Below, in pieces: positions 17,061 through 53,010 of a stretch of DNA of 64,000 nucleotides. The stretch lies in the IMG/VR virus record IMGVR_UViG_3300044856_000241, positions 139,625 through 203,624 of that record; one strand, 5' to 3'. How positions within the stretch are numbered: position 1 is the first letter of the stretch; every line of letters starts with the position of its first letter. The notes beneath the pieces are model-generated. The model did not search any database. It was not told the DNA's origin and saw only the letters and a program-made list of their open reading frames with translations. This stretch comes from a virus (Duplodnaviria; Caudoviricetes). The position numbers were made by a program, and so were the translations under genes.

Positions 17061-18341
17061 GGAACTTATTTATGGTTTATGTGATTTCACAAGATAGTAA
17101 ACCATTAATGCCCTGCAGTAATCCAATTGCAAGATTATTACTTAATCAAGGCAAAGCAAAAGTTAAGAGACGTGAGCCATTCACAATTAAATTGATTTAT
17201 GAAACAACAGATTACACTCAAGACTTAACTCTTGGTGTAGATACTGGAAGCGGAACTATTGGTACTGCTGTAAGTAAAGACAATGGAGATATCGTCTATA
17301 TGTCAGAAATTGCTGTAAGAAACGACATTACTGACAAAATGACACGAAGAGCAAAGTATCGCAGGAATAGACGAAATCGTAAAACTCGTTACAGGAAAGT
17401 AAGATGGCTTAATCGTGCTAATTCTATACGAACCGATAGGTTTAGTCCTACAATGCAGAGCAAACTTCACAGCCATGTAAAGGAGATAGAATACATTAAG
17501 TCTATTCTTCCGATCACAACAATGGCGTTTGAAGCAGGACAGTTTGACACGCACTTAATGAAAAATCCAATCTTGCTAACCCAAAAGTGAGACTATGGGG
17601 ATACCAAAAAGGTGCTAATTATGGATTTGAAAATACTAAAGCAATGGTACTTAACAGAGATAATTACACCTGTCAGTGTTGTAAGGGTAAACACAAAGAC
17701 AGTAAGCTGGAAGTGCATCACATAGTATTTCGTAGTCAATGTGGCTCTGATGAAGCGAGCAATCTTATTACTCTGTGTCATACCTGTCACAAAGACTTGC
17801 ATAGTGGAAAGATTAATTTTAAATTGAAAGGCAAATTGAAAGGCAATCTTAAATATGCTACACAAATGAACTCTATCCGTAAACAGCTTTTCAAATTATA
17901 TCCAGATGCTATTGAAACTTTCGGATATGTAACAAAAGTAAACCGTTTGCATTTAGGCGTAGCCAAAGAACATTATTATGATGCCTGTGTGATTGCAACA
18001 CAAGGCAGTATATTTACCGTAAAATCTAATCTTTACAAAAAGAAATGTGTTTCTGATGGTGATTTTCAAAAGACTAAAGGTATTCGTTCTGAACAACCTA
18101 TTGTTACAAATAAAATTTGTGGCTTTAGAAAATTTGATAAGGTTCGATATTTTGGGAATGATTACTTTATCAAAGGAAGAATGTCTACTGGATACACAAT
18201 TCTTATGGATATTGACGGTAACAAAGTTGACTTTTCGGAGATGCCTAAGGGTTACAAAACACCAAAAATGATAAATTTAAAAAGAGTGAAAGCTCGTTCC
18301 TCATGGATGGTCACGACGATAACAACTGTCCAAAATATAGT
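16779..18341 (+). mobile_element. non-autonomous IS200/IS605-family IscB (OMEGA) element
   Basis: omegaRNA plus iscB; followed by ATGAA; no tnpA. Confidence 0.85.
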
Positions 18342-27676: not shown

Positions 27677-28708
27677 GTGAGATTATTGAACGGTAAGATT
27701 GCAGACAGATCAAACGAAATCACAGAAGAAGAATGGTTACAAGTTAATGAATTTAACAGAAGGATGGTTGACGATTACCTCAGTAATCAGACACATCTTT
27801 CACCTCAGAGTTTAACTGCATACAAGAGCGCATTAAGGATATTCTTTGTATGGGTTAAAGATAATTTAAATAATAAAAATTGTATCGAAATTCGAAAGAA
27901 AGAATTTTTACGCTATATGAATTGGCTTGCTAATAGGGGTTTTTCTGAATCTGGAATTAAATTCAAAAAATCATCTGTTAGCGCATTTAACAAGTTTATT
28001 GAGAATTTTTATGACGAAGACTATCCTCTTTTTAGAAATTACGTCACAGCAGAAATGCAAGTACCCAAAACTGGAAAAGTATTTGCAAAAGAACCGCTAA
28101 CTCCAGATGAATTAAAGCATTTATGTAATGTATTAGAAGAACGTGGAGAATGGCAAAAATTAGCTTATGTGAAATTTACATATTCAACCGGTTGTAGACG
28201 CGCGGAAAGTATGCAATTACTTAAAGAAGTTGTCAATTACGAGCCAAAACGAAAAATAGTTATAATTGTAGATGAAAATGGTAAAGAACAAGAAGCAGAA
28301 TCTGTATCATATAAAACACATGAAATTCGCTGTAAGGGAAGAAGCTCTGTTGGTAAGGTGCGTAAACTTCAGTTTGGACAAGATGTTATGGATGCATTAA
28401 AGAAATGGCTTGAAGTACGAGGTGAAGATGATTGCCCATATATGTTTGTTGTAAAACAGAAAGATGGGGAAACACACCAAGTAAGTAAAAGTGTTTTTAA
28501 TGATTGGTGTATCGGAGAATTTTCCGAAATTGTGGGAAGGAGAACTACACCACATAACTTCCGGCGGAGTCGTGCAACGAATCTAGTTTGTTATGATCAT
28601 CGTGCTTTAGAAACGGCTCAAAAATTACTTGGGCATGAATCAAGCGAAACCACACAAATGTATGTAATTCGTGAAGATTCAGAAGATGCTGATGAGGCTT
28701 TTATCTAA
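27677..28708 (+). CDS. tyrosine recombinase/integrase
   Basis: TGCRRAE, HNFRR, LLGH, TTQMY; true start may be TTG at 27686. Confidence 0.92.
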   Translation: MRLLNGKIADRSNEITEEEWLQVNEFNRRMVDDYLSNQTHLSPQSLTAYKSALRIFFVWVKDNLNNKNCIEIRKKEFLRYMNWLANRGFSESGIKFKKSSVSAFNKFIENFYDEDYPLFRNYVTAEMQVPKTGKVFAKEPLTPDELKHLCNVLEERGEWQKLAYVKFTYSTGCRRAESMQLLKEVVNYEPKRKIVIIVDENGKEQEAESVSYKTHEIRCKGRSSVGKVRKLQFGQDVMDALKKWLEVRGEDDCPYMFVVKQKDGETHQVSKSVFNDWCIGEFSEIVGRRTTPHNFRRSRATNLVCYDHRALETAQKLLGHESSETTQMYVIREDSEDADEAFI

Positions 28709-28822
28709 TCCCATAATTTTACTTATAATCAAAACTCCATACCCAAGTTTGTAAGGACGGCGTTGCGACGGCGTTCTAGTTTTGAGGGTGAATAAGAAGA
28801 GGCATTACTTCTCTTCTATTAC

Positions 28823-28910
28823 TGGTAGGTATGCAAATGGCTGAAGCAAGCGGACTGTAACTCCGTGACCCGCGTGGTAAACATTGTGAGTTCAAATCTC
28901 ACCCTCCCAA
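28823..28910 (+). tRNA. tRNA-Tyr(GTA)
   Basis: GCGGA-CTGTAAC-TCCGT, long variable arm, GTTCAAATC. Confidence 0.85.
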
Positions 28911-28997
28911 TAAAAAAAGAAGCATCTCTGCTTCTCTTCTATCTATAACAAATCTTATGTAAGAAATTATAATCCCACCAAGCTCAACAGAAAAGTG

Positions 28998-29078
28998 TTA
29001 GTTCATAAAAGTATGTACAACTTCCAGCACTAATGTTAGTGCTTTTAGCCCTAAGATGATAACTGTTAACTTCATCAT
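28998..29078 (-). CDS. 26-aa hydrophobic peptide MMKLTVIILGLKALTLVLEVVHTFMN, type I toxin-like
   Basis: AGGAGGTG RBS; promoter TTGACA-17-TATTAT at 29235-29263; terminator at about 28912-28934. Confidence 0.65.
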   Translation of the reverse strand: MMKLTVIILGLKALTLVLEVVHTFMN

Positions 29079-29375
29079 CTCAGACCACCTCCTCTCGTTG
29101 AACGAAAAGTGATGTGTACGAGCCGGCACTTGCCATAAACGGCGACCGTAATTAATCTCTGTATGTTGCTCGTCTTACCATGGGTGCTGTAACACCCTGA
29201 ATCCTTTTGGGATTCTCGACCTCACTAAAAGAAAATAATACTATTTATATAGGTATTTGTCAATAGATAGTTTTTGGTGTGCTGCCACCATAATGCAGAA
29301 CTATATAACGGTGTCCCACTACCATAAAGGTGGATTATGTTTAGCCAGGATTTATACAGTTCTGGCTCTTTTTAT

Positions 29376-29457
29376 GCTGCATGTCCGGGTGGTGAGGAAG
29401 TGGTCTTGAAAACCATTGGCTGTTAAAGGCTTGCAAGTTCAAATCTTGTGTGCAGCG
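29376..29457 (+). tRNA. tRNA-Ser(TGA)
   Basis: GCTGCAT/GTGCAGC, CTTGAAA loop, long variable arm. Confidence 0.85.
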
Positions 29458-29465
29458 TTTTTCAT

Positions 29466-29548
29466 GCGGGAAGCCTGATGTCAAAAAGTAGATGTGCTCG
29501 GATGCATACAATGAGTACTACTCTGTGGGTTCATCACCTACTCCCGCC
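29466..29548 (+). ncRNA. tRNA-like RNA lacking normal D and anticodon arms
   Basis: GCGGGA/TCCCGC stem, T-arm GTGGG-TTCATCA-CCTAC, extended central stem. Confidence 0.5.
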
Positions 29549-29552
29549 CTAC

Positions 29553-29625
29553 GGCTCCGTGGTCTAGCGGTTACGACACATCCCTTTCAAGGATGTAATG
29601 CTGAGTTCGATTCTCGCCGGAGTCA
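29553..29625 (+). tRNA. tRNA-Glu(TTC)
   Basis: CATCC-CTTTCAA-GGATG; GTTCGATTC. Confidence 0.9.
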
Positions 29626-29671: not shown

Positions 29672-30415
29672 TTGGCATTATCGTTCAAAGATTCTATGAG
29701 AATGCAAAATGTGGAAAATATCTCTGCTGTTACTCTTGATAATGATGCAGCATTATATTCTTTACCAGAAGTATATACAGAAGACGAATTCCAAAAGAGT
29801 GATAAATATAAATGGTACGATGATTATAGTGATAACGACATCTGCACAATTGATTCACAGAAAAATATTCACATCAATTCAAATCAGATCAATATAACAC
29901 AAGAATCTAATTCTCAGTACATCCCATTTCAAATGCCTAGATATTACGACGGGATGGATTTAATGAAAATGGTTATTACAATCCATTATTGTACATCTCA
30001 AGGGTATGAAAATTATAAAGATCCTATTAATGTCTCATATAGTAGCGATACGATTAAATTTGGATGGCTTATTGATAAAAATGCTACGGCACACGAAGGT
30101 ATCTTACAGTTTGAAGTACATGCTACAGGTGTAAATTCGCACGAAGATGAATATCTATGGATCACAAAAATAAATAATCAATTAACAATTCTTAAATCTT
30201 TACATGGAAATGGTGTTACAGAGCCAGACCAATCATGGACTAACTCTTTTTTTGAACAAATTAACGAAAAGGTAGGTGAAGCGCAAAAATATGCAAAACA
30301 GGCAGAAACTGCTGCCACTACTGCGGCTGAAAAAGCAGCAAAAAAATTAAAAGACGAAATCGGTAATTCAACAATTATAAATATAGATTTAATTTCAGGT
30401 GGAAATTCTAAATAA
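29672..30415 (+). CDS. BppU-like fibre/baseplate anchoring protein
   Basis: ESNSQYIPFQMPRYYDGMDL...FGWLI...G.LQFEV pattern. Confidence 0.6.
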   Translation: MALSFKDSMRMQNVENISAVTLDNDAALYSLPEVYTEDEFQKSDKYKWYDDYSDNDICTIDSQKNIHINSNQINITQESNSQYIPFQMPRYYDGMDLMKMVITIHYCTSQGYENYKDPINVSYSSDTIKFGWLIDKNATAHEGILQFEVHATGVNSHEDEYLWITKINNQLTILKSLHGNGVTEPDQSWTNSFFEQINEKVGEAQKYAKQAETAATTAAEKAAKKLKDEIGNSTIINIDLISGGNSK

Positions 30416-30449
30416 ACAATAACTAAAGAAAGGAGGAAGAAACGGATCA

Positions 30450-31130
30450 ATGTATACTATTTTGATTAAATCAAATAATGAAATGATTGTAAGTACGCCA
30501 GAACAGAGAATTATGCAAAGAAGTAAACTTGTTGATACACTTCATTTTCTCACTGCGCCTACATATAACGGATTAGATATGTCTACTTGCACTTTATTAT
30601 TAGAATACAAACTTCCGGTAAGTCAAGAACCACACTCCGAAATTCTCACCCTTTCTAATGATTTATATAAAGAAAATCTCGAATACAAACTGCCATTAGA
30701 TACCTCTATAACAAAAGAGGCTGGAAGAGTCGAGATGCAAGTTACTTTTCTGAAAAATGAAATGAATTCAGATGGAAGTGTTTCTCAATATACAAGAAAA
30801 ATAAGTCCTTGTTTTGTAAATATTATTTCTGTTGCTGCATGGAGTAATATGGTGCCTGATGCTGAGTTAGCTGCTATTGATCAACGAATTCTTAAATTAG
30901 ATGCTATCGCAAATCAATTAAGTGAAATGCAAGATGTAACATTCGAAACAAAAGCAGACGACATTTCGTATGAAAACAATACAATTCAACTACTTGCAAA
31001 CGGCAAAAAGATTGGCACAAGCCATGTTCTTGATCAGCAAGAAGAAATGGATATTATTGAATTTGGGGATAATGGGGACGAAAATCCTGATAGTCCAAAT
31101 GATGATGACCATACATTAGTGGAATTCTAA
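30450..31130 (+). CDS. BppU-like structural protein
   Basis: YNGLDMS...ITKEAGRVEMQVTF; ends TLVEF. Confidence 0.55.
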   Translation: MYTILIKSNNEMIVSTPEQRIMQRSKLVDTLHFLTAPTYNGLDMSTCTLLLEYKLPVSQEPHSEILTLSNDLYKENLEYKLPLDTSITKEAGRVEMQVTFLKNEMNSDGSVSQYTRKISPCFVNIISVAAWSNMVPDAELAAIDQRILKLDAIANQLSEMQDVTFETKADDISYENNTIQLLANGKKIGTSHVLDQQEEMDIIEFGDNGDENPDSPNDDDHTLVEF

Positions 31131-31152
31131 ATTACGGAAAGGGCGAAAATAT

Positions 31153-33099
31153 ATGGCAAAGAAAAAGTATAAACTTGGTTGGGGAGAGGAAAATAAAATT
31201 ACTTCTGCTATCCAAAATGGTTTATTGGATGGCGGGGATCTTGTTATTACAAAAGACACTAAACGGATTGCATTTATTGATCCGAACGAAAATCTTGTTC
31301 ATTTTTTAAAAAACAGATTGATAACTTTTGATAATCTGGAAGATGCAAAATCTTATGCTAATACAAACAAAGATGCTTATGCCGGTGAATTAATATCTGT
31401 ATTAATTGGAGATAAACAAAAAACTTATCGGCTACAAAATGCTGAAACAGGATATTCTATTGAAGATATTGATTCTGCTATAGATAATTTAAAACAATAT
31501 GTACAGGTTGTTGACGTTTTCCCTGAAATCGGACAAGAAGAAGGAATTATTTATATATCTAATACAATTGGAAAAATATGGACAGGAACAGAATGGCGCA
31601 CAATATTTGAAGATATTACTCCAATTAAAGAAGAATTAGATAAAAAGGCTCCATTAAATAATCCTGAATTTTCTGGGATTATTAAAGTAGACGGTGAAGA
31701 GGTTGCTCTTAAATCATACGTAGAACAATTAGTTACAAACTTACCGTCTCAGATTCCCGGTACGGTAGATTCAAAAAATCAATTACCTGAATCAAATTAT
31801 AAAGCTGGTCAAACATGGCGTGTTGTTGAAGATGGTATATATGCAGGACAAACATGTGAGATTGGTGATTTAATTATTTGTGTAAATGATTGCGCAGGTA
31901 ATTATTCTGATGATGACTTTATTATTGTCCAGGCAAATATTTCTGGAGCAGTCACCGGAACAGACTCTTCTGCTGATGGAGAAATTGTTATTTTTTCTGG
32001 TGTATCCGGCAAGGCGATTAGAAACTCTGGTATTAATATTGATGTTGTTGAAGATTTAATATCAAAATCACATGAACATGCTAATAAAGAAATTCTGGAT
32101 ACGTACACAAAAACAGAAGAACAACTGTTGCAGGAAGCTGAAGATACAGTATATGCAGTATACGAAGATATTAGAAACAGATTAGTTCATACAGAGCCGT
32201 ATGTAGAAGGTAATTATTTATATGCAAATGGACATGGATTGATTATTGAAGCAGTAGACGAAAATACAAACAAAGCTATTTATTATCTAAGTGGACAAAA
32301 GAAAGAACTTACTTTTAAGACAGATGGTGTAATTATTGGTGGTGCAAAAGATGATAACTGTCACTCATCTTCTATCATTATGAATAGTGGTAACGTCGGA
32401 ATTATTCATGGCGGTTCGTTTGGTAATGGAGATGTTGCAGAGTCAAACATTGTAATTAATGGTGGAACAATCGAATGCATTTATGGTGGTGGACATCCAG
32501 AATTAAATATCCAGAAATATGCTAATCACACAGGATATGCGAAAATCATTGTAAATAATGTTTCTGGTACATGTCAAATTTTTGGTGGCGGATATAGTTA
32601 TGCTACAACTGGCTCTGCTGAAATTATTGTTAATAAAGGTAATTTTTCATATGTCACAGCTGGAGGTTCAAATGGATATACAGCAAATGGCTCGATTGAA
32701 ATTAATGACGGAATTATTCAGTGTGTGCAGTCTGTTAATCGTGGATCGATAGGTCATGCTGTAATAAAAATCAATGGTGGAACTTGTGCTGGATTATATG
32801 CAGGTGTAGAGCCTGGTGGTGAAGCAACTGGTTCTTTTGGACATACAGAACTATATCTTCTTGGTGGAGAAATTCAGAAATTAGCAAAAGGACTGAATAA
32901 TAATGTTGAAGATTATGACACAACAGAATGTGTGTCTGGTGAATATCGAGCATCTGTAGTAAGCCAGTCAGAAGCAGATGCAATCGGTTTAAAACTTACG
33001 TCTGAAATCACTCGTACTGATATTGATTATGCAAAAGACCAGGCAATTGCAGAAGCAAAAACATATATAAACTCCTCTCTCACTTTAGTTGAATTTTAA
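31153..33099 (+). CDS. fibre/adhesin protein with Gly-rich beta-helix-like C-terminus
   Basis: IxGG repeats; KAPLNNPEFSG; ends TLVEF. Confidence 0.65.
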   Translation: MAKKKYKLGWGEENKITSAIQNGLLDGGDLVITKDTKRIAFIDPNENLVHFLKNRLITFDNLEDAKSYANTNKDAYAGELISVLIGDKQKTYRLQNAETGYSIEDIDSAIDNLKQYVQVVDVFPEIGQEEGIIYISNTIGKIWTGTEWRTIFEDITPIKEELDKKAPLNNPEFSGIIKVDGEEVALKSYVEQLVTNLPSQIPGTVDSKNQLPESNYKAGQTWRVVEDGIYAGQTCEIGDLIICVNDCAGNYSDDDFIIVQANISGAVTGTDSSADGEIVIFSGVSGKAIRNSGINIDVVEDLISKSHEHANKEILDTYTKTEEQLLQEAEDTVYAVYEDIRNRLVHTEPYVEGNYLYANGHGLIIEAVDENTNKAIYYLSGQKKELTFKTDGVIIGGAKDDNCHSSSIIMNSGNVGIIHGGSFGNGDVAESNIVINGGTIECIYGGGHPELNIQKYANHTGYAKIIVNNVSGTCQIFGGGYSYATTGSAEIIVNKGNFSYVTAGGSNGYTANGSIEINDGIIQCVQSVNRGSIGHAVIKINGGTCAGLYAGVEPGGEATGSFGHTELYLLGGEIQKLAKGLNNNVEDYDTTECVSGEYRASVVSQSEADAIGLKLTSEITRTDIDYAKDQAIAEAKTYINSSLTLVEF

Positions 33100-33112
33100 C
33101 GGGGTGGACATA

Positions 33113-33565
33113 ATGGAAAACAAAATTATTTCAGTGATTGGTACAGTGTCTAGTAGACTTCCTGACTTACCAATCAAAGATGGACAAATTGTATTTGTTA
33201 AAGATAAAAAGAAAGTTGCTCTTGACCTTGACGGGAAAAGAACTTTTTACAATGAAATTGTCACATTTGATAATGACAATGAACGATTAGATTTATTGGC
33301 ACCCATTAATGGGTGTTTTTATTTTGTCGTAAAAACTGCTGTGCTTTGGACTTATCAAAATAAATGGATTCAGGTTACTACTTCACCGGAAGAAGTTGTA
33401 TTTTTTGGTACAGAAATCCCTGAGTTGGGCAAAGCAAATATTCTATATGTAAATAAAAATAAAAAAAATATATCTGTTTGGGACAATGATACGAATTCCT
33501 ATGTTGTTGTAGGTGAAGCTGTTGATTTGGTCACAAATGATGATATAGATAAATTTTTTAAGTAA
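33113..33565 (+). CDS. fibre-associated protein
   Basis: context; ends TNDDIDKFFK. Confidence 0.6.
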   Translation: MENKIISVIGTVSSRLPDLPIKDGQIVFVKDKKKVALDLDGKRTFYNEIVTFDNDNERLDLLAPINGCFYFVVKTAVLWTYQNKWIQVTTSPEEVVFFGTEIPELGKANILYVNKNKKNISVWDNDTNSYVVVGEAVDLVTNDDIDKFFK

Positions 33566-33577
33566 AGGAGAAAAATA

Positions 33578-34675
33578 ATGGCTGAAACAATTAAAAAATA
33601 TGTTGATCAGGCGGCACTTGAACATCTTATTGAGAAATTAGGGGTGCGTGAGGATACAAAAGATGCTGAAATTCTTAAACAGGGCAAGGCATATTCTGAT
33701 TCTCTCGCAACAAACTACGATCCGGCTGGGACTGCTGAGACAAAAGTAAATGATCTCGCTAATGGTCAGGTAAAAACAAATACAGATGCCATCACAAAAT
33801 TAAATGGTGGTACAGATGTTGAAGGTTCTGTAGATAAGAAAGTTGCTGATATGGCAACAACTATCCGCGGAGAAATTACAGCAAATAAGTATGATGACTC
33901 TGCTTTAAAAGCTCGTGTAAGTGCTAACGAGACAGCTATCGGTGTTCTTAATGGAGAAGGCGTTGGTTCTGTTAAGAAAACTGTTGCAGATGCTGTTGCA
34001 GCAATTGTTAATGAAGCACCAGAAGCATATGACACATTAAAAGAGATTAGTGATTGGATTTCCGGACATGAAACAGATGCTGCTGGAATGAACAGTTCTA
34101 TCAAAGCTAATAAAGCTTCTATTGATGCATTAACCACATTAGTTGGTAAACTGCCAGAGGGAGAAGACAGTAAAACTATTGTTGATTACATTGACAAAAA
34201 AGTTGGTTCTGTAGACTTCTCTGAGGCAATTGCCACAGCTAAAAAAGAAGCAACTGAAGCAGCTGCTTTAGATGCTACAACAAAAGCAAACAAGGCTTTG
34301 AGCGATGCAAAGACATATGCTGATGGTCTTGCAAAAAATTATGCTACAGCAGCACAGGGAGCAAAAGCTGATTCTGCTGTACAGAAAGCTGACGTAGAAA
34401 GCGGCAAAACAAACGGTACTATCAAAGTACAGGATAAAGAAGTTGCCGTAAAAGGTCTTGGTTCTGCAGCATTTACTGCTACTACTGAATACGAAAAGGC
34501 TGGAGCTGTTGCTGCTCTTGAAGCAGGACAGGTTGCAACAAATAAAACTAATATTGCTGCAAACACAACAGAAATTACAAATGCAAAAGCAAGAATTCAG
34601 GCACTCGAAGATATCAAATTTGTTGCTATGACAAATGAAGAAATCGATGCTTGTTTTGCACCTAAAGCTGAGTAA
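33578..34675 (+). CDS. Ala-rich coiled-coil fibre protein
   Basis: APEAYDTLKEISDWI motif; ends TNEEIDACF. Confidence 0.7.
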   Translation: MAETIKKYVDQAALEHLIEKLGVREDTKDAEILKQGKAYSDSLATNYDPAGTAETKVNDLANGQVKTNTDAITKLNGGTDVEGSVDKKVADMATTIRGEITANKYDDSALKARVSANETAIGVLNGEGVGSVKKTVADAVAAIVNEAPEAYDTLKEISDWISGHETDAAGMNSSIKANKASIDALTTLVGKLPEGEDSKTIVDYIDKKVGSVDFSEAIATAKKEATEAAALDATTKANKALSDAKTYADGLAKNYATAAQGAKADSAVQKADVESGKTNGTIKVQDKEVAVKGLGSAAFTATTEYEKAGAVAALEAGQVATNKTNIAANTTEITNAKARIQALEDIKFVAMTNEEIDACFAPKAE

Positions 34676-34734
34676 TATATATTTATGTATTAGCGGTGTA
34701 AAACCACCGTTAATACATTTTGGAGGGCAATTTA

Positions 34735-35052
34735 GTGGAAAGAAAATATCTTGATTTAGAAGGTCTTGAAAGGCTTGTTGAAAATAGCAAAGATTTATTT
34801 TCAAATAAAAAACATACACATATTACCTCCGATATATCTGGTTTAAATGATATTTTAGATTCATTGATAGAAAGACAGTCATATGCAGGTATCATTAATT
34901 TTCCGAATGTCGGGAAGCCTGGAAATATATATATAGACACTCTAGCAAATAAATCATATCGATGGGATGATACTGATCTTAAATATTATTGTATTGGTAG
35001 TAATTATAATGATATTAATTTAATTATATGTGGAGACTCTACAGACTTGTAG
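34735..35052 (+). CDS. small fibre connector protein
   Basis: KYLDLEGL, HTHITSDISGL, FPNVGKPGNIYID. Confidence 0.6.
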   Translation: MERKYLDLEGLERLVENSKDLFSNKKHTHITSDISGLNDILDSLIERQSYAGIINFPNVGKPGNIYIDTLANKSYRWDDTDLKYYCIGSNYNDINLIICGDSTDL

Positions 35053-35075
35053 AGTCTTTTTTAATTGGAGGAATT

Positions 35076-36581
35076 ATGGCAAATAATACTTTAAATACAC
35101 GTATCATTCTTTGTAATGATACAAGTACAAACTGGGGTTCATCAACTAAAGTTCTGTTAAAAGGAGAACTTGGTATTGAGTTAGCAAATGATGCTGCCCC
35201 AAAATTTAAAATTGGTGATGGTGTCAATGTTTATAAAGATTTAGATTATGTAACAATGACACCGGCAGAAATTAGCACTGCAATTAATACAGCAGTAACA
35301 AATGCAAAACATACGCATAGTAATAAGGACATCCTTGATGCTATTACGGCTTCATTCACAAAAGAATTAAAAGCAAATTATGACAAAGCTTATACACATT
35401 CACAGTCTGCTCACGCGCCAAGTAATGCTCAGGCAAACGTAATTGAGAGTGTAAAAGTAAATGGTTCAGCTCTCACACCATCTAGTAAAGCTGTAAATAT
35501 TACTGTACCAACAAAAGTAAGTGATCTTACAAATGATAAAGGATATATTTCTTCTTATACTAATACAACATATTCTTTAGGTGCTACTGCAAGTGCTACT
35601 AATGGTAATGTAAAAGTAAATCTTACAGGAAGTGACAGCAGCGAAAAATCTGTAACAATCAAAGGTAGCGGTGCAACAACGGTTACAACAGGTTCAGATG
35701 GCGTGATTACTGTTGCATCAACGAATACTGTGTATTCTCACCCAAGTTCCGGAGTAACCGCTGGTACATATAAGTCTGTTACTGTAAATGCACAAGGACA
35801 TGTAACTTCTGGCAGTAATCCTACAACACTTTCAGGATATGGAATCAGTGATGCTTATACAAAAACTCAGACAGATACAGCAATAACAACTGCAATCGGT
35901 AAAGCAGGGCATTTAAAACGTGAAATTGTGTCGGCATTACCAAGTGTAAATTCTGCTGATACAAATACGATATATATGGTTCCGAAAGCATCTGGAGCAA
36001 CAGGATCTTCTGATACTAACGGATATGATGAATATATGCTGGTAGTAAGTGGAGATATAAAAAAATTTGAAAAAATAGGTGATTCTGCGGTAGACCTTAC
36101 AAATTATGCAACAAAATCATATGCAAATTCTGCTGCTAGTACAGCTGTATCTAACGCTGCTAAGAATTATGCAACTTCGGCTCAGGGAGCTAAAGCAGAT
36201 ACTGCTGTTCAGTCTGTAAAAATTGGAACAACAGAATATAAATCTGGAACAACGGTTACACTTCCAGCTTACCCTACTACCCTGCCAGCTTCTGATGTAT
36301 ATGCTTGGGCAAAGGCAAGTAGCAAACCAACTTATACTAAAAGTGAAGTTGGTTTAGGTAACGTAGATAATACAGCAGACGCTAACAAGTCTGTTAAATA
36401 TGCAACAAGTGCAGGATCTGCAACTTCTGCTACTACTGCAAGTAAATTAGGAACAAATGCAGGATCTTCTACACATCCTGTTTATTTCTCAAATGGTGTT
36501 CCTGTTGCATGTAATGTCTCCACCGACTATTTTACACAGGGTTCTAATACTCTCGTACTTGATGGTGGCGGAGCAGCTTAA
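35076..36581 (+). CDS. tail fibre protein with Mtd/hyaluronidase-type N-terminal domain
   Basis: DTSTNW...LLKGELGIE...FKIGDG; GLGNVDNTAD repeat. Confidence 0.8.
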   Translation: MANNTLNTRIILCNDTSTNWGSSTKVLLKGELGIELANDAAPKFKIGDGVNVYKDLDYVTMTPAEISTAINTAVTNAKHTHSNKDILDAITASFTKELKANYDKAYTHSQSAHAPSNAQANVIESVKVNGSALTPSSKAVNITVPTKVSDLTNDKGYISSYTNTTYSLGATASATNGNVKVNLTGSDSSEKSVTIKGSGATTVTTGSDGVITVASTNTVYSHPSSGVTAGTYKSVTVNAQGHVTSGSNPTTLSGYGISDAYTKTQTDTAITTAIGKAGHLKREIVSALPSVNSADTNTIYMVPKASGATGSSDTNGYDEYMLVVSGDIKKFEKIGDSAVDLTNYATKSYANSAASTAVSNAAKNYATSAQGAKADTAVQSVKIGTTEYKSGTTVTLPAYPTTLPASDVYAWAKASSKPTYTKSEVGLGNVDNTADANKSVKYATSAGSATSATTASKLGTNAGSSTHPVYFSNGVPVACNVSTDYFTQGSNTLVLDGGGAA

Positions 36582-36682
36582 CGAACTTTATTTATATAAT
36601 GAGAATATTTCTGCGTATTCATTTGTTGAGCGATTATGTGATGAATACGCAGAACTCATTTTAATAAAGGAGGAATTTTTGA

Positions 36683-39553
36683 ATGGCTGATAAAACTATT
36701 AATGTTAGACACGTTCAAAAACATGATACAGAAAATAACTGGACTTCGAAAAATCCTGTATTATTAGCTGGCGAAATGGCTTTTACTACAGATGGAACGA
36801 ATGCTGGAAAATATAAATTAGGTGATGGTACTTCCAAATGGTCTGCTCTTTCTTATGCAAAAGCAAAATTGGAGAAATCTGATGTAACTGGGGCATTAGG
36901 ATACACACCGCCTACAACAAATACTACATATTCGACTGGAACATCGTCTACATCTGGATTAACAAAATTATATACAAGTACAGGTAGCGCAACAGACGGA
37001 ACTATGACACAAGCTGCGATTAACACTGCTCTCTCTGGTAAAGCACCTAGTGGTCATACACACACAAAATCTCAGATTACTGATTTTCCGACTTCTTTAC
37101 CTGCCAATGGTGGAAATGCATCTACTGCTAACAAGTTAACAACAGCTAGAAGTATTTCACTTGGAAGTGGTGCTTCTGGCTCTGTAAATTTTGATGGATC
37201 TGACAATGTTACACTTCCAGTAACTTCTATGAAAGAAGCATATTTAACATGGGGTGGTAAAAACTTTGACGGATCCTATGGTTGTATTGATGCCGCTATG
37301 ATTCCAGATTTAGGTGCTAATAGATTAGCCTTTGGTAGTGGTGACGGCATTACAATTGAATATTCCAGAGATAGTGGGGCTACTTGGACAAGTTGTAATC
37401 TTTCATCAACAAATCGTGGTTTAATGTTATCTACCGGATATTCGGTATCAATAGGTATGGCAGATAGTACAAATAAAGCAACCGCCGCTTATATGTTAAG
37501 AGTGACGCTTGATACAGATAAAATTCCTGTATATACAGTATTAAACAAATTTGCTATATATGTATCTACAAATGGATCTGGTGGATGTTATTGTTCCATT
37601 GACGCTTCACTAGAGTCAACACCTACAACATGGGTTAATTTTGCTAGTAAAGTAAACATTTCTGGTTGGTCTGGTTGGAATATTATTAATACAAATAATA
37701 TAACAACTTATGGAAATTCAAAAGCTACTCAGTATGGATTAATTCGGTTTACATTTGGGTGTACAAGTGGCAGTACAACTTATAGCGGATTACAAATTAA
37801 TCGTATTATGGGATTTGGTGGCGTTGGTTGGTCAACTCCGTCTAATATGGCTAATAATGGTCATCTTTATTCATATGATGGTGTAGGAAATGTAACTTTT
37901 CCGGCAAAGGTAACTGCAAACGCATTTATTGGTCAGTTATCTGGTAATGCAAATACTGCTACCGCTCTTACTTCTTCCGCAGGTTCTGCAACTCAACCTG
38001 TATATTTTACGGGAGGTAAACCTACCGCTTGCACATATACATTAGGCAAAAGTGTACCTTCTAATGCGGTATTCACAGATACAGATACATGGAGACCATT
38101 AGGTACTACAGCTGATACCGCTTGTGCTGGTAATGATTCGAGACTATCAGACGCAAGACCTGCAAGTGACGTATCTGCATGGGCTAAAGCAAGTAGTAAA
38201 CCAAGTTATAGTAAATCCGAAATCGGTTTGGGTAATGTTGATAACACTGCTGATAGTGCCAAATCTGTTAAATACGCTACATCAGCTGGTTCTGCAAGTA
38301 GTGCAACAACTGCAACAAAGTTATCAACAAGTGCTGGTTCTTCTACACAGCCGATATACTTCTCCAATGGAACACCTACTGCTTGTAGTTATACTCTTGG
38401 AAAATCAGTGCCAAGTAATGCCGTATTTACAGATACAACATACACAGTCGCAACAACTTCAAAAGACGGTTTGATGAGTTCTGCTGATAAAACAACTTTA
38501 AATTCTGTTGTTTCAAGAATGAAACGGAATGTATTTGTAATCACAGATTCTTACGGTGTATACAAAAGTAATTCTGATCCATCTGGCGATCCAATGGTAT
38601 TCCCAAGTTATTTTACAAAAGTGTTTAATTTTATGGGATTTGTTGCTCATCATGGTGGAAATTTTAATGCTGGTGCAAGTAATTCTGCTGATTTTGCAGC
38701 AATTTATAAAAATGAAGCAAAACCAAAAATTACTGCGGAATTAACTGACTTGATTATTGTTGGCGGATTTAATGATCGTGAAGCTGAACCAAGTGCAATT
38801 CACGCAGGAATTAAACGTCTCTATGATGCAGTAATTAAAGATTATCCAAATTGTAAAATTTCAATTGGTCACTTTGGATGGTCTAGTACACCAGATTCTA
38901 AAGTTCGTGATAGTATGCTTACGCACTCACTTGTTGCATACAGAGCTTGTACGACCGACGGATGTGCATATATGCCAAATAGTGAGTATACCATGCACAA
39001 TTATTCGTTATTCACAACAGATAACGTGCATCCAAACACAAATGGAAAAGCTGAAATTGTAAAACAAATTTTTGAATATCTGTGTACAGGGACATGTGAT
39101 GTACATTATCCTTACAGATTAATCACAATACCGGCAACCGGAAATATAACAACAACGTATCAAGTTGGATTTAAATTGGATAATAATATTGTTACAATGT
39201 TTTTACCAAATACATCATTAGCATTTAAGAATTATCCACCAATGGGTGCAAATGCATTATCTCAATTTATGTGTATTGCAAGTATTGGAAGTAGAGATAC
39301 TTGTGGATATGCGATGGGTATGTGTGATGATAAATATCATGTACAAAAAAGTCTTCCAATAAAAGGTTATTTTACTTGTTCTGATGGCACATTTAGACCT
39401 CTTGATTCTTGTGATTTTTATTTACAAGGCGGATTTATCATGTGTAGAGCTAACATTTTGGCAAGCCCAACTTCTGCATATTTACCAGACTTTTATGCAA
39501 CAGGTTTCCAGATAAGAGGATGTGTAATTCAACTTACATGTGACCAATGTTAA
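36683..39553 (+). CDS. tail fibre/receptor-binding protein with Mtd-type N-terminus and SGNH hydrolase domain
   Basis: LLAGEMAF...YKLGDG; ITDSYG, GGFNDR, DNVHPN. Confidence 0.8.
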   Translation: MADKTINVRHVQKHDTENNWTSKNPVLLAGEMAFTTDGTNAGKYKLGDGTSKWSALSYAKAKLEKSDVTGALGYTPPTTNTTYSTGTSSTSGLTKLYTSTGSATDGTMTQAAINTALSGKAPSGHTHTKSQITDFPTSLPANGGNASTANKLTTARSISLGSGASGSVNFDGSDNVTLPVTSMKEAYLTWGGKNFDGSYGCIDAAMIPDLGANRLAFGSGDGITIEYSRDSGATWTSCNLSSTNRGLMLSTGYSVSIGMADSTNKATAAYMLRVTLDTDKIPVYTVLNKFAIYVSTNGSGGCYCSIDASLESTPTTWVNFASKVNISGWSGWNIINTNNITTYGNSKATQYGLIRFTFGCTSGSTTYSGLQINRIMGFGGVGWSTPSNMANNGHLYSYDGVGNVTFPAKVTANAFIGQLSGNANTATALTSSAGSATQPVYFTGGKPTACTYTLGKSVPSNAVFTDTDTWRPLGTTADTACAGNDSRLSDARPASDVSAWAKASSKPSYSKSEIGLGNVDNTADSAKSVKYATSAGSASSATTATKLSTSAGSSTQPIYFSNGTPTACSYTLGKSVPSNAVFTDTTYTVATTSKDGLMSSADKTTLNSVVSRMKRNVFVITDSYGVYKSNSDPSGDPMVFPSYFTKVFNFMGFVAHHGGNFNAGASNSADFAAIYKNEAKPKITAELTDLIIVGGFNDREAEPSAIHAGIKRLYDAVIKDYPNCKISIGHFGWSSTPDSKVRDSMLTHSLVAYRACTTDGCAYMPNSEYTMHNYSLFTTDNVHPNTNGKAEIVKQIFEYLCTGTCDVHYPYRLITIPATGNITTTYQVGFKLDNNIVTMFLPNTSLAFKNYPPMGANALSQFMCIASIGSRDTCGYAMGMCDDKYHVQKSLPIKGYFTCSDGTFRPLDSCDFYLQGGFIMCRANILASPTSAYLPDFYATGFQIRGCVIQLTCDQC

Positions 39554-39595
39554 AAATAAAATTTGCGATATTGTATTATTGACTTGGAGGACTTT

Positions 39596-40720
39596 ATGGG
39601 AAATATATTTTCAAAAACATTGTTTAAGCGGTTTGTAGATAATCACTATGGAAGAAAAAATATCTCTCATATTGGCTCTACTGCTACTGAAGCAATTTAT
39701 AATTTATATAAAAATACACATAAATGTTATGTGGTTATTTCAGACTCTTATGGTGGATATAACTTATCCACCGATTATTTAAAAAATAATTTAACAGCTA
39801 AATTACCAGACGTTGATTTTAAATCTATTTCTTGTGTAGCTGGAGCATGTTTTAATTCTGGAGACGCAACTTTTGATAAATTACTTGCAGCAATGGATTT
39901 AAACGGTGTAACAGATATCATTCTTGTAGGCGGCTTTAATGACCGCGAATCGTCACAGGAAAATATAATGCAAGGAATTAAAAGGGTTCGTGATTTGATC
40001 GATGAGAATATTCGAATTCACATTGGACATCATGCCTGGTCTTCTCTTCTTGAATCTAGTGTTCGTGACCTATTGATTGTAAATAGTATACCGGCTTATA
40101 GAAAATGTAGTACATATAATAATTGTTTTTATATGAAGAATTATGAATATGTGATGCATGATTATTCTTTGTTTCAGGAAGACAACGTACACCCGAACGA
40201 AAATGGAGCACAACAAATTTGTAGACAGATTGCAAGATATATCGAAACAGGTACTTGTGATGTACACTATCAATATAAGGTGCTGAGTTTTCAGTCTGGG
40301 TATAACACTGCCACTGCTTATGAAGTGGCATATGTATTAGATAACGACTTAGTTACAATTTATTTACCAACAATTCCTATCAATTTTACAAATCCTATTA
40401 CATGTGGTGTGAATAATGATGATACTCAACTATTACAGGTGGGATATCCGACCGGAGATAATAGAGGTTATATGATGGGAATGTATGATGGGCGACAAAA
40501 TGTACAGCATGTATTATGTTTGAACGGATATTTTAAAACAGATGCAAATGGCACCCCGCTATATGTTGGTATGGAAGGATGCAAATTTGTTTTACAGGGT
40601 GGATTTATACATATGTATAACAATACAATCGCTGCAGACGGTACAAATTTCCAAGTATTTAATGCTGTTGCTATGGAAATCCGTGGCGGAACATTTACTA
40701 TTCCAACATTAGCTTGTTAA
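39596..40720 (+). CDS. SGNH/GDSL hydrolase, paralogue of the preceding C-terminal domain
   Basis: ISDSYG, GGFNDR, DNVHPN. Confidence 0.8.
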   Translation: MGNIFSKTLFKRFVDNHYGRKNISHIGSTATEAIYNLYKNTHKCYVVISDSYGGYNLSTDYLKNNLTAKLPDVDFKSISCVAGACFNSGDATFDKLLAAMDLNGVTDIILVGGFNDRESSQENIMQGIKRVRDLIDENIRIHIGHHAWSSLLESSVRDLLIVNSIPAYRKCSTYNNCFYMKNYEYVMHDYSLFQEDNVHPNENGAQQICRQIARYIETGTCDVHYQYKVLSFQSGYNTATAYEVAYVLDNDLVTIYLPTIPINFTNPITCGVNNDDTQLLQVGYPTGDNRGYMMGMYDGRQNVQHVLCLNGYFKTDANGTPLYVGMEGCKFVLQGGFIHMYNNTIAADGTNFQVFNAVAMEIRGGTFTIPTLAC

Positions 40721-40758: not shown

Positions 40759-40831
40759 GCCGATGTAGCTCAGTTGGTAGAGCAGCTGATTTGTAATCAG
40801 CAGGTTATCGGTTCGAGTCCGATCATCGGCT
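40759..40831 (+). tRNA. tRNA-Thr(TGT)
   Basis: canonical cloverleaf GCCGATG...CTGAT-TTGTAAT-CAG...GGTTCGAGTCC. Confidence 0.95.
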
Positions 40832-51063: not shown

Positions 51064-51403
51064 TATGCTCCAACACAAATACGGTGAATTTAAAAATTCT
51101 CAAGTTGAGTACTACAAGCAAAAATTCAGGAAAAAGATTTTCTGGCTAATCCTTTATACAGACAAGCGTACAAATCAAAATTATCAAAACATTGATGTAG
51201 AAGAATTCCACAAGAATTTAATTTTTGAAATTTCCAGTTGTAATGAATTACTTCTGTACCCTCAAAATTTTGTGGAAATTATTAATCGATTAGAGCAAGC
51301 ATTAAAAGTATTAGAATCAGATAAGTTTGATTTTAAGAAATATAAAAAATTAGTTTTTGATGCGGGAGCTTTAATCAAAACGGTGGAAGTAGGTGATAGA
51401 TAA
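51056..51403 (+). CDS. hypothetical protein
   Basis: coupled ORF. Confidence 0.65.
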   Translation: MDNMLQHKYGEFKNSQVEYYKQKFRKKIFWLILYTDKRTNQNYQNIDVEEFHKNLIFEISSCNELLLYPQNFVEIINRLEQALKVLESDKFDFKKYKKLVFDAGALIKTVEVGDR

Positions 51404-53010
51404 TGTCAACCTATAATCAATATAGACGGAAGTTTAATATTACTTCTGATAATCAATCTATCGTTACGCCTACTACTCTTGGTCAGAAATTAAAAGCAGA
51501 ATCTGATCAAATGATGGAACGAACTTTGGATGCCGATTTACAATCTAAAGTTTGTTACATTTATGATTATTACCATGATGACCAGCCTGATAAAAAAGAT
51601 CATATGACTTATGAATACACGACTAAAACACGTATTGATGCGAAGTTTTTTATGAAAACTCATCAGTCACTAGATAAGGATCAGACTGAGTATTACTTAC
51701 AATTCAAACCATCTCAGAAATTGGAATTCGTTCCTGGAGATGAGTTGTATTATTTTGAAACTGATTACCGAAGAAAATTTTGGAGTGAATTTCCGATAGG
51801 TATGTATTGCGATATTGCTAACGAAAAAGGAGTCTATGAGAAATGGATCGTTGTTGGTAAGGAAATTTCTAATCAGTTTACAAAATATTTTGTATTGCCG
51901 GTTGATTACCGTTTACAGTGGATTGAACGTTCCGGAAGGGCAAAAATAAAACGTCAAATGTGGGGAACCACAAGGAGCCAAAGTTCGTATAATGTGTGCG
52001 CTTCATATCGGAAACGGTATGTCGAAAGTTTTCTAATTGCTGGAAACTCTCAGTATGTTATCGGTACAGTAAAGTGTGACAATCTGATAACTGGAGACAA
52101 TCAGCAGCGAAGCTTCTTATTTAATAAGAAGAACGTTCAACGATCATGCGCCCAAGTGGGCTAATGGAAACCACCTAAGTCTTTTAAAAGATATGGTGTT
52201 GATATGCTCTGACCTTCATGGCGACATGGAGAAAATAAAATTATTACAATTTTATCTTTATTGAATTAACGACTCAATAAAGTAACAATCAAAAAAAATG
52301 ACACTATTGGTACGTATACAGATCGCTATATCACCAAACAAGATAATCAGCAAAAATTCAAACTTCCATTGAATCCGATTACCGAAAAACTTTGGTACAA
52401 CGATGATGTTAATAAAACTATGCGTATCATTTTAAGTGCTCCTACTGTACATCCACTTACGTGGTCATGTACAAAAATTGAAAACCTGAAACCAATCGGT
52501 ATTCAGGATTTGACGTTATATCAGAACCAATTCAATCCAAACAGAGATTACATCGAAAAAGATTCTTCCGGAAGAATTATTGGTATGTGGGCTGATTATT
52601 ACGATTATGACTCATCTACAGAACCAAAAACAGACCAAGATCCAGAAATTCCTGATACTGAAAAGCCTTTGCAGAAACCAGAGATTTTAACAGAGATTGA
52701 AGCCACATCTTCTGTTGTTAATGTTGGCGGAAGCTATAAGAATCTCACAGTTAAAATTTATGATGGTCAGAAGTCTGATATTACAGATATTACTGAGAAC
52801 TGTAAAGATGCTACATTTGTATGGTCATGCTCTATTAGTGATGAAAATTGGACTGACAAAGTAACATGGTATAAAACTGGTTATAACCAGATGAAACTTA
52901 AATTCCCTAATGACAGAACACAACTCGGCAAGCATTTATTTGTGAAGTGTGAAATCACATTAGGAGAAGAAACAATTGAAGCTACTACCATCTTTGGGTT
53001 AAAAATCTAG
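51403..53010 (+). CDS. putative head-completion protein, spliced join(51403..51988,52301..53010), 431 aa
   Basis: splicing restores the frame as RSQSSY-TIGTYTDRY. Confidence 0.75.
51989..52300 (+). mobile_element. group I intron, 312 nt, no homing endonuclease
   Basis: P AATTGCTGGAAA, Q AATCAGCAG, R GTTCAACGATCAT, S GATATGCTCT; U.G pair at the 5' site; terminal G at 52300. Confidence 0.88.

Follow-up and report, generated by a model that had tools for sequence, protein, structure and literature searches.

The receptor-binding appendage of a 203.6-kb siphophage-like gut phage, whose host probably belongs to the Clostridia/Lachnospiraceae, appears to be built from about eight separate proteins, with short tags at the end of one protein probably docking on the start of the next as the means by which the pieces join and are swapped. 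This reading, which draws on sequence comparison and structure prediction, is given a probability of roughly three in four as a whole. The window, a 64,000-nt stretch of the phage genome, carries nine tandem genes, g1-g9, on the + strand, each preceded by a Shine-Dalgarno site, with g1-g8 of the module spanning positions 29672-39553 and g9 a possible further member (Table 1). No paper describing such tag/acceptor connectors was found in a literature search; multi-protein fibres and docking peptides as such are known kinds.

Table 1. Genes, tags and acceptors of the module (positions in the 64,000-nt window)
Feature	Position	Strand	Description
g1	29672..30415	+	Predicted baseplate anchor of BppU type, with a beta-sandwich followed by a long helix and a flexible tail (AF2 and Foldseek)
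g1 class-C-type tag, ..LISGG+3	30383-30412	+	Last 10 residues
g2	30450..31130	+	Second predicted BppU-like anchor (AF2 and Foldseek)
g2 class-A tags, ..IIEF; ..TLVEF	31053-31064; 31113-31127	+	In disordered acidic tail
g3	31153..33099	+	648-aa fibre segment, body of Gly-rich repeats
g3 A3-type acceptor	31153-31317	+	N-terminal, about residues 1-55
g3 tag, ..SLTLVEF	33082-33096	+	C-terminal
g4	33113..33565	+	150-aa adaptor
g4 A4-type acceptor	33113-33262	+	About residues 1-50
g4 class-B tag, TNDDID..F+1 residue	33515-33559	+	Residues 135-149
g5	33578..34675	+	365-aa Ala-rich rod
g5 class-B acceptor	33587-33649	+	Residues 4-24
g5 class-B tag, TNEEID..F+5 residues	34631-34657	+	Residues 352-360
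g6	34735..35052	+	105-aa adaptor, class B to class C
g6 B acceptor	34735-34794	+	N-terminus
g6 class-C tag, LIICGD+4	35020-35049	+	
g7	35076..36581	+	501-aa fibre; PHROG tail-fibre matches
g7 Mtd_N-type cap	35076-35255	+	
g7 class-C tag, LVLDGG+3	36552-36578	+	
g8	36683..39553	+	956-aa distal fibre
g8 Mtd_N cap	36683-36862	+	
g8 putative SGNH-like esterase head and C-terminal domain	about 38537-39520	+	Motifs read in alignment
g9	39596..40720	+	374 aa; paralogous to the putative g8 esterase head but stand-alone

The first-pass annotation had assigned C-terminal tags and N-terminal domains to g1-g8 in three classes, A, B and C; these assignments were borne out, and all six junctions are class-matched. 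The class A tags of g2 and g3 both end in ..TLVEF, and a short N-terminal hairpin motif, DG..(L/I)V..KD.K..A, is common to g3 and g4. In profile comparison, however, the 16-column hairpin alone aligns between the g3 and g4 acceptors (P = 0.007), and the tags preceding g3-type and g4-type acceptors differ at positions -5 to -8. By profile, class A comprises two acceptor families that are not demonstrably homologous and have distinguishable tags, so that at least four tag/acceptor pairs are present here. Both g5 and g6 start with KY(V/L)D...LE.L, and the g5-type and g6-type B acceptors form one family (hhalign 99%), as do the C acceptors (hhalign 100%). Across the whole 203.6-kb genome (377 ORFs), acceptor-profile matches at E <= 0.001 are confined to module genes, the A3 profile matching g3 alone (E 1.3e-23) and the B profile g5 and g6 alone, and the sole further match is one opposite-strand ORF at E = 0.008; the tag patterns match seven module genes and four ORFs elsewhere. 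The acceptors are strictly N-terminal (none of 180 domain matches begins past residue 30) and the tags occupy the very C-terminal end, those of g1 and g2 in tails left disordered by AF2 monomer models. More than 400 homologues of g4, each of about 150 aa, have an invariant C-terminal Phe.

The matching of classes extends beyond this phage. Among 20 non-redundant related loci, a contingency table of adjacencies between a tagged gene and an acceptor gene gave 53 cognate and no cross-class cases, against a mean of 6.2 cognate cases (maximum 16) after within-locus gene shuffling and of 17.2 (maximum 30) when the module genes alone were shuffled; the random tag/acceptor adjacency that the first-pass annotation had named as fatal to its scheme is thus not what these loci contain. 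A g4-type acceptor is preceded by an A tag of ..[VT]EF type in 20/20 cases, a B acceptor by a B tag in 26/28 and an Mtd_N cap by a C tag in 10/10, while predecessors of A3 acceptors end in ..[VI]EF in 14/22. The eight exceptional A3 acceptors (the others being two of the 28 B acceptors) come after a giant-protein block; a g2-like gene lies upstream of the giant gene in the three loci with upstream sequence (L023, L029 and L114), where by the pattern used only that of L029 bears an A tag. B tags with no recognised downstream acceptor are found in L021, in L024 and on an 82-aa adaptor of L007. Much of the cognate adjacency is inherited synteny, the independent events being a handful of rearrangements plus the fusions described below, and it is genomic adjacency that points to the classes being orthogonal.

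Tag and next gene change together. The g4 homologue of L030 has a C tag in place of the B tag, with an Mtd_N fibre directly next and g5 and g6 absent; the chain of L029 contains three B junctions; and L012 and L014 encode a separate 328-aa A3 protein after the g2-like gene, together with a pre-g4 protein devoid of the A3 domain. An exhaustive profile search also recovered at least seven cluster representatives in which an upstream-type protein is fused to g4, in none of which is an ..EF tag present at the joint, and one g4-g5-type fusion from which the B tag and the first acceptor residues are both missing. Such fusions favour contiguous pieces at both the A and the B joints, and the check on co-occurrence and fusion suggested earlier came out in favour of the scheme, with the classes co-occurring and fused forms dropping the tag.

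In all four segment families the ends are more conserved than the middles, median identity among g7-like proteins being 69% over the first 40 residues, 34% in the middle and 58% over the last 25 residues. If only the ends must be kept, middles and whole segments can be exchanged between phages. Conserved ends are also predicted if they are mere recombination boundaries combined with shared ancestry, neighbouring ends then being co-inherited and not touching, and the fibre genes are indeed mosaic: between g7 and its L007 homologue only the first 98 and the last 61 residues of g7 are shared, and the whole cassette is 70-80% identical to that of L007/L010 where the portals show 25-39%. This explanation is nevertheless improbable. 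Same-class tags within the window share too little DNA for recombination (12/15, 20/27 and 8/18 nucleotides, with synonymous differences), their residue pattern is fixed to the very terminus including the Phe, a given acceptor follows its own tag even where the upstream families are unrelated, the tag is deleted in fused forms, pair C is found in phages of four bacterial phyla, and the modelled interface described next sits on exactly the tag and acceptor residues.

Contact between successive products was modelled at one of the six junctions by complex prediction with three copies of g4 and three of g5(1-75). This trimeric tag-plus-acceptor model of a cognate pair, proposed as a check in the first-pass annotation, passed with a score of 0.72 (runs 0.71, 0.72 and 0.73) against 0.15 for the best of three controls. 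The interface brings g4 residues 135-149 (plus 117-118) together with g5 residues 4-24, which is the tag on the acceptor; run-to-run agreement of the contacts is at least 92%, with a pLDDT of 89-90 for the partners. In calibration the mark was reached by 58/80 solved complexes and 2/110 mismatched pairs, counts that are only a rough guide for g4/g5; custom alignments and trimers set this run apart from the calibration. The g4 profile has no PDB relative by sequence, making a pass through memorisation of a solved structure unlikely. The model therefore supports a touch of C-terminal end to N-terminal end at g4-g5, and the A and C junctions are presumed to make comparable contact.

Alternatively, the tags could be signals read by some other factor (a fibre chaperone, an assembly factor or a protease), or could fold back on their own protein. 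Many fibres need chaperones acting at C-terminal ends (PMC9608196), and the tags are disordered in monomer models; however, no small chaperone-like gene follows each segment, no cross-class case breaks the correspondence between the class of a tag and that of the N-domain encoded next, and tag loss in fusions fits a joint and not a signal. Self-capping is unlikely, given that in middle segments such as g4 and g6 the class at one end is not that at the other. Taken together, a role of this kind is very improbable.

The first-pass annotation placed g1 and g2 in the fibre module; their tags stand, but a fibre-segment role does not, as both are predicted to fold like BppU/FibL anchors. The AF2 model of g1 has a sandwich at residues 58-174 (pLDDT >90), a helix at 187-230 and a tail of pLDDT <50, and that of g2 a sandwich at 1-126, a helix at 137-164 and a tail at 195-226 (pLDDT <50). 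Foldseek matched g1 to TP901-1 BppU (4v96/3uh8), NF5 (9m8o) and 80alpha (6v8i) with E 8e-6 to 7e-4, and g2 to 6v8i, 4v96, 9m8o and 3uh8 with E 1e-5 to 2e-4; the top matches of both are nearly all BppU/FibL-type chains (E 8e-6 to 1e-3), with TM-scores on the target of up to 0.62 and sandwich pLDDT of 83-96. The N-terminal Ig-like beta-sandwich of BppU and the long helix after it, which in BppU and FibL forms a trimeric coiled coil, are both present in the two models, and the folded C-terminal domain by which BppU holds the RBP trimer is absent from them, disordered tagged tails (pLDDT <50) standing in its place. The models thus support g1 and g2 as baseplate anchors of BppU/FibL type in a tag-bearing variant. 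Close relatives of g1 keep the class-C tag, and one relative has a B tag instead; the ..IIEF of g2 is an extra tag 21 residues upstream of ..TLVEF, two tandem ..EF tags being usual among g2 homologues.

At the distal end, the N-termini of g7 and g8 resemble each other (BLAST E 2e-9), and a profile from 10 Mtd_N caps matches HylP structures (E 6.8e-8). The Pfam Mtd_N score of g8, 25.4 bits (E 1.3e-5), is just under the gathering score of 26.3, and judged from sequence the g7 and g8 N-termini are in practice homologous to Mtd_N, though under that cut-off. The two proteins are 82% identical between g7 residues 404-479 and g8 493-568. A C-terminal tag is absent from g8, which would therefore be the terminal piece; its repeat at residues 71-184 matches the PHROG 'distal subunit'. 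Set against the blocks expected of an SGNH/GDSL esterase (a GDS-like Ser nucleophile, GxND and DxxH), the alignment of g8 with g9 pairs the putative esterase motifs DSYG, GGFND and DNVHPN, the family matches of the g8 head and g9 being weak (GSCFA E 0.01, AxeA1 E 0.001). g9 is 39% identical to g8 619-946 (E 4e-66) and has neither tag nor acceptor, no acceptor profile matching it.

It is proposed that g1 and g2 sit on the baseplate, where their flexible tails would present the short peptide tags, and that the fibre is made of separately translated segments, presumably trimers, each with an N-terminal cap that captures the C-terminal tag of the preceding piece. In pair A, which has two subtypes, a hydrophobic pair plus Glu-Phe at the very C-terminus would dock on a hairpin-type N-domain; in pair B, the N-terminal K-Y-[VL]-D..L helix region would receive a tail of the form ..[DE][DE]I..[LF]F, acidic and amphipathic; and in pair C, an Mtd_N cap would receive a hydrophobic strand that runs into [DN/C]GG and ends with 1-4 small residues. 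Default assembly would follow gene order, g2 > g3 > g4 > g5 > g6 > g7 > g8, out to the putative esterase tip, with g4 and g6 serving as short class-switching adaptors, while g1 would give an Mtd_N fibre another site at which to attach directly.

Adjacency, co-variation, fusions and the g4-g5 model argue for most of what the first-pass annotation had concluded, namely separate polypeptides, several non-interchangeable tag classes and module exchange, but a single linear long fibre is not established, since g1 has a C tag without an adjacent acceptor and C tags are in surplus. The ..LISGG of g1, taken earlier as a possible branch point, is a class-C tag, and branching there is possible. A different topology, which overlaps with the docking reading and concerns topology only, would have same-class tags interchangeable, with g1, g6 and g7 competing for two Mtd_N caps and the g2 tags perhaps holding two partners, to give branched or mixed short and long fibres in place of one daisy chain. 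C tags and C acceptors stand at 3:2 here and in L003 and at 2:1 in L113, the tandem ..EF tags of g2 homologues would suit two partners, the 82-aa adaptor of L007-L011 (Mtd_N plus B tag) could re-recruit B-acceptor proteins, and 80alpha has two BppU-like fibre rings, FibL and FibU (PMC7048315). On the other hand, a linear chain fits gene order at every junction, and the tags before g7-type caps (..IN[CG]G..) differ from those before g8-type caps (..L[IV][LF][DN]GG..), a difference that could encode sub-specificity and a fixed order and that is confounded with shared ancestry. The branched or mixed arrangement is held tentatively, the odds being somewhat against it.

Modular polyketide synthases carry docking domains, short C- and N-terminal elements on consecutive subunits, in compatibility classes that set assembly order, with gene order usually following. 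The likeness is one of analogy only, with no homology and with (presumed) structural trimers here as opposed to enzyme dimers. Among phages, the TP901-1/Tuc2009 tripod, in which BppU holds BppL and BppA (PDB 4v96, 3uh8; PMC4742702), has the same Ig-like sandwich and long helix as are predicted for g1 and g2, which like BppU would attach receptor-binding trimers to the baseplate of a siphophage via the N-terminus of the partner. BppU holds BppL with a folded C-terminal domain, whereas here a disordered tail with 5-10-residue tags would take that role, and unlike in TP901-1 the attached piece would be extended by up to five more tagged segments. Phage 80alpha likewise has two paralogous BppU-like anchors, FibL and FibU, each leading into a coiled-coil or collagen-like fibre (PDB 6v8i; PMC7048315), but there anchor and fibre are one polypeptide, while here the fibre is split off and segmented. 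The T4 long tail fibre, gp34-gp35-gp36-gp37 (PMC3004832), also joins separately encoded proteins end to end with genes in assembly order; its joints, unlike those here, are unique to each pair, gp35 is a monomer and no reusable tag classes are described there, and apart from the g8 repeat match noted above no sequence similarity to it was found. The principle proposed here, a short conserved peptide of one receptor-binding protein docked to a dedicated domain on a second and so open to plug-and-play exchange, is also that of the RBP1 branching domain and RBP2 docking peptide of Klebsiella phages KP32/K11/KP34 (PMC13352976, PMC6872550) and the branched tailspikes of CBA120 and RaK2 (PMC10253068). 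Peptides of the KP32 kind sit at the N-terminus of the incoming protein and dock on an internal T4gp10-like domain, whereas the tags here occupy the C-terminus of the proximal protein, with the distal N-terminal cap as the proposed socket and several classes in series; these C-terminal tags, with no Pfam or PHROG match to gp10-like domains in the module at sequence level, argue against a KP32-type anchor-branch system. The g7 and g8 N-termini are probably of the same domain type as the Mtd_N/HylP cap (Pfam PF18454; PDB 6x3m, 2c3f), although the solved structures that a sequence search retrieved are those of isolated hyaluronidases.

The pairing of a ..DGG tail with an Mtd_N cap recurs in phages of all four phyla mentioned above: in crAss001 (Gp24>Gp25), whose distal fibres are unresolved in the published atlas (PMC10172136), in Pseudomonas phage Epa19 (a protein with 'central tail hub' among its record notes, followed by the fibre), in Arthrobacter phage Cole (gp29>gp30) and in Streptococcus phage Javan291 (an annotated endopeptidase and the next gene). 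It is present at 33/39 non-redundant IMG/VR Mtd_N genes compared with 28/195 other ORFs of the same loci, and the literature searched describes no partner for the Mtd_N cap, a role proposed here for the ..DGG tail. Whether short C-terminal tags and N-terminal caps, with at least four classes here, constitute a general docking grammar that can be read from sequence and recurs in otherwise unrelated phages infecting Firmicutes, Bacteroidota, Proteobacteria and Actinobacteria is evenly poised; were this the case, genomes could be read directly for the order in which receptor-binding appendages are put together, for their branching and for the units that are exchanged. Distant relatives of g4 may carry a further tag class, ..W[EG]x[ILF].

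The source of the sequence is a single phage contig of 203.6 kb, of which the window forms the final 64 kb, and its portal protein shares 25-30% identity with its counterparts in large siphophages of Firmicutes (Lactococcus AM1/AM2/AM9, PMBT69, Brevibacillus Sundance, and Bacillus Nate). In uncultured phages, fibres are mostly encoded by runs of unannotated genes, and here Pfam and NCBIfam were nearly empty for g1 to g6, PDB sequence searches with g3 and g4 gave nothing, and no cultured phage matched the module by megablast. The module comprises two BppU-like baseplate anchors (g1 and g2) and the fibre segments g3 to g8, among which g4 and g6 are short adaptors and g8 is a distal fibre with a putative esterase head, with g9 as the next gene. 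Joining of neighboring products by read-through or frameshifting was ruled out, as every gene has a Shine-Dalgarno sequence and a start codon of its own, and the frames of g3 and g4 differ.

Features of the fibre module, its surroundings and other elements of the window
Feature	Position	Strand	Remarks
HEARO RNA (RF02033)	16779-16994	+	88.6 bits, cut-off 83
195-aa ORF	17003-17590		directly after HEARO RNA
Integrase-like gene and three tRNAs (Tyr, Ser, Glu)	27677-29625		upstream flank; integrase phrog_1, E 1e-34
Nine consecutive genes (g1-g9)	29672-40720	+	GGAGG-type ribosome site before each
P-[EN]-x-G..G.[IL]Y...W motif	~31525, 33410, 34900		g3 residues ~125-150, g4 ~100-130, g6 ~55-85
Hairpin (12 bp) and T-run	35032-35059	+	overlaps g6 stop codon, right before g7
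Shared stretch, g7 residues 404-479	36285-36512		76 residues
Shared stretch, g8 residues 493-568	38159-38386		76 residues
tRNA-Thr	40759-40831		downstream flank; terminase genes also downstream of module
ORF	51403-52164		end overlapped by Group I intron
Group I intron (RF00028)	51979-52231	+	67.8 bits, full-length match, structural gene region

Each short C-terminal tag and N-terminal motif listed in the first-pass annotation was found at its gene. Of the three tag/acceptor classes it proposed, two stood and one had to be divided when profiles built from every N-terminus were iterated across all proteins of 30 related loci. The g7 and g8 Mtd_N caps (class C, following ..GG tags) converged on one family, as did the N-termini of g5 and g6 (class B, following [DE][DE]I..F tags), which had 43 members in common and an hhalign probability of 99%. 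Class A, defined by ..EF tags, consists of two pairs; the g3-type (A3) and g4-type acceptors had zero members in common, hhalign aligning only a 16-column hairpin (P = 0.007), and they are preceded by tags of the form [DG]..[YF][ET][VL][VI]EF and S-A-L-[TA]-[VI]-[VT]-E-F, respectively. Among the 377 ORFs of the whole genome, acceptor profiles matched module genes only at E <= 0.001, the sole further match being an opposite-strand ORF (E = 0.008); tag patterns occurred in seven module genes and four ORFs outside the module. More than 400 g4 homologues of ∼150 residues, one of them from a Lachnospiraceae MAG, retain an invariant C-terminal Phe and the tail pattern [ST]..[DE][IV]..[LF]F. Many distant g4 relatives of ∼140 aa (P0203-P0293) end in ..W[EG]x[ILF] in place of the B tag, which may represent a further tag class.

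Three metagenomic contexts and 27 IMG/VR loci, the latter obtained with an alignment query since scans with a single g4 or g6 protein found none, were condensed to 20 non-redundant loci. Within these, the gene preceding a g4-type acceptor carried an ..EF-type tag in all 20 cases; genes with B tags preceded 26 of the 28 B acceptors, and genes with ..GG tags preceded all 10 Mtd_N caps. For g3-type acceptors the figure was 14 of 22, the remaining eight being the first fibre gene past a giant-protein block. In some relatives g2-like and g1-like genes precede a gene for a giant protein of 1800-2460 aa and the fibre genes follow it, so that part of the non-adjacent A3 acceptors is explained by the giant gene sitting between anchors and fibre genes. 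The co-occurrence of tags and acceptors, proposed at first pass as a check, is non-random, all 53 pairs being cognate and none crossing classes; shuffling of gene order gave a mean of 6.2 cognate pairs (maximum 16), or 17.2 (maximum 30) when confined to module genes. It could be argued that same-class tags are recombination repeats, which is unlikely given that those in the window have only 8-20 nucleotides in common and show synonymous differences.

Because much of this adjacency is inherited synteny, rearranged loci bear most of the evidential weight. In L030, a g4 homologue carries a C tag, g5 and g6 are missing, and an Mtd_N fibre lies directly next, while L029 has three B joints in succession. 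In five loci (L012, L014, L017, L024, and L026) the A3 domain is absent from the protein preceding g4 and is found as a separate, tagless 328-aa protein after the g2-like gene. One g1 relative has a terminal B tag instead of the C tag. In L007 (14482-14730) and the near-identical L008-L011, an Mtd_N cap, 67% identical to that of g8, and a B tag make up the whole of an 82-aa protein; it would turn a C joint back to a B joint, no B acceptor lies downstream of it, and it could be a loop or branch maker. Acceptors were always N-terminal, none of 180 domain hits beginning past residue 30, and the ends are more conserved than the middles in all four segment families. A tblastn search of cultured phages with a B-acceptor adaptor detected one unannotated record only.

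Fused forms, also named at first pass as a check, provide a further line of evidence. A word-indexed search for longer g4 relatives found none, and an exhaustive profile search of 1.84 billion representatives detected 715 g4 relatives, part of them fused. In at least seven representatives an upstream-type protein (an A3-domain protein, a 443-aa family member or a beta-helix type) is joined to g4; the joint lacks an ..EF tag in every one of these, whereas the C-terminal B tag is always kept. In one protein the g4 body passes without a break into a rod of g5 type, the B tag and the first acceptor residues both being absent, and in many proteins the first ∼100 residues of g4 form the head of long untagged fibres. 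Such tag loss is what a non-covalent joint predicts, since a tag is needed only at chain breaks. Were the tags instead a signal for a third party, neither their loss in fusions nor the prediction of the next gene's class by tag class would be accounted for. The tag/acceptor arrangement is a real and conserved feature that very probably serves for docking. Just before the tag, g3, g4, and g6 share a motif that, by eye, may resemble the fibritin foldon hairpin; L030 and the g4 relative P0180 look like recombinants via this element.

A predicted complex of three copies of g4 with three of g5 residues 1-75, using a 17-row alignment for each, supports contact between the g4 tag and the g5 acceptor. 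The model scored 0.72 (runs 0.71, 0.72, and 0.73), the best of three controls reaching 0.15; the calibration counts for this mark (58/80 solved complexes, 2/110 mismatched pairs) apply only roughly here. Contact agreement between runs was at least 92% and partner pLDDT 89-90, and the confident interface joins g4 residues 135-149 (the tag) and 117-118 to g5 residues 4-24. A score owed to memorised structures is unlikely, as a sequence search with the g4 profile detected no relative in the PDB.

In the AlphaFold2 models of g2 and g1 (mean pLDDT 71.8 and 69.8), a confidently predicted beta-sandwich is followed by a long helix and then by a disordered tail that bears the tags. For both, the best PDB fold matches, at E values between 1e-5 and 1e-3, were TP901-1 BppU (4v96, 3uh8) and baseplate chains of 80alpha (6v8i) and NF5 (9m8o). 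Assignment of g2 as a 'head protein' (PHROG E 0.0012; P22 coat E 0.12) was dropped because its fold matched BppU; a PDB sequence search gave capsid matches at chance level only. The tail of 80alpha is ringed by two BppU-like proteins, FibL and FibU, which extend into fibres (PMC7048315), whereas the equivalent anchors here end after the helix and separate segments take over.

The six consecutive junctions were originally read as one long fibre. The matched junctions hold, but the single chain does not follow, as g1 has a C tag without an adjacent partner and C tags exceed caps, three facing two here and in L003 and two facing one in L113; branching, or an additional short fibre, appears as likely as one chain. 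The g9 product is a tagless, capless paralogue of the putative g8 esterase head. A stretch shared by g7 and g8 is 82% identical, far above the remainder of both proteins, which suggests recent intragenomic exchange. The hairpin before g7, together with weaker ones after g5 and after g7, may attenuate transcription, thereby setting segment stoichiometry.

The class C pairing extends beyond this clade, a ..DGG tail preceding an Mtd_N cap in crAss001 (Gp24 and Gp25), Pseudomonas phage Epa19 (a protein with 'central tail hub' among its record notes and a fibre), Arthrobacter phage Cole (the 65-aa gp29 and the esterase gp30), and Streptococcus phage Javan291 (an annotated endopeptidase and the next gene). 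In IMG/VR it was found for 33 of 39 non-redundant Mtd_N genes versus 28 of 195 other ORFs of the same loci. Solved Mtd_N-cap structures found by sequence are isolated hyaluronidases, distal fibres are unresolved in the crAss001 atlas (PMC10172136), and no description of the cap's docking site was found in the solved structures and papers searched; the ..DGG tail is proposed as the partner of this widespread cap.

Multi-protein fibres are known from T4 (PMC3004832), receptor-binding proteins held by BppU from TP901-1 and Tuc2009 (PMC4742702), and docking peptides on branching domains from KP32 (PMC13352976, PMC6872550) and CBA120 and RaK2 (PMC10253068). The literature searched held no account of the motif strings, of fibre genes docking in a chain, or of serial, class-coded C-terminal tags docking on N-terminal caps. 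A rule for which protein plugs into which would convert gene lists into assembly maps, mark sites of natural module exchange, and explain a single cassette in otherwise unrelated phages, as here. The fibre cassette is 70-80% identical to those of L007 and L010, but the portals of the same loci are only 25-39% identical and their giant tail protein is not present in this genome, a comparison from which the cassette is concluded to have moved between unrelated phages. The integrase-to-g1 arrangement in L113 is identical to that seen here.

Elsewhere in the window, a HEARO RNA, a family associated with HNH/IscB-type genes, is directly followed by an ORF, and a Group I intron lies in the structural gene region.
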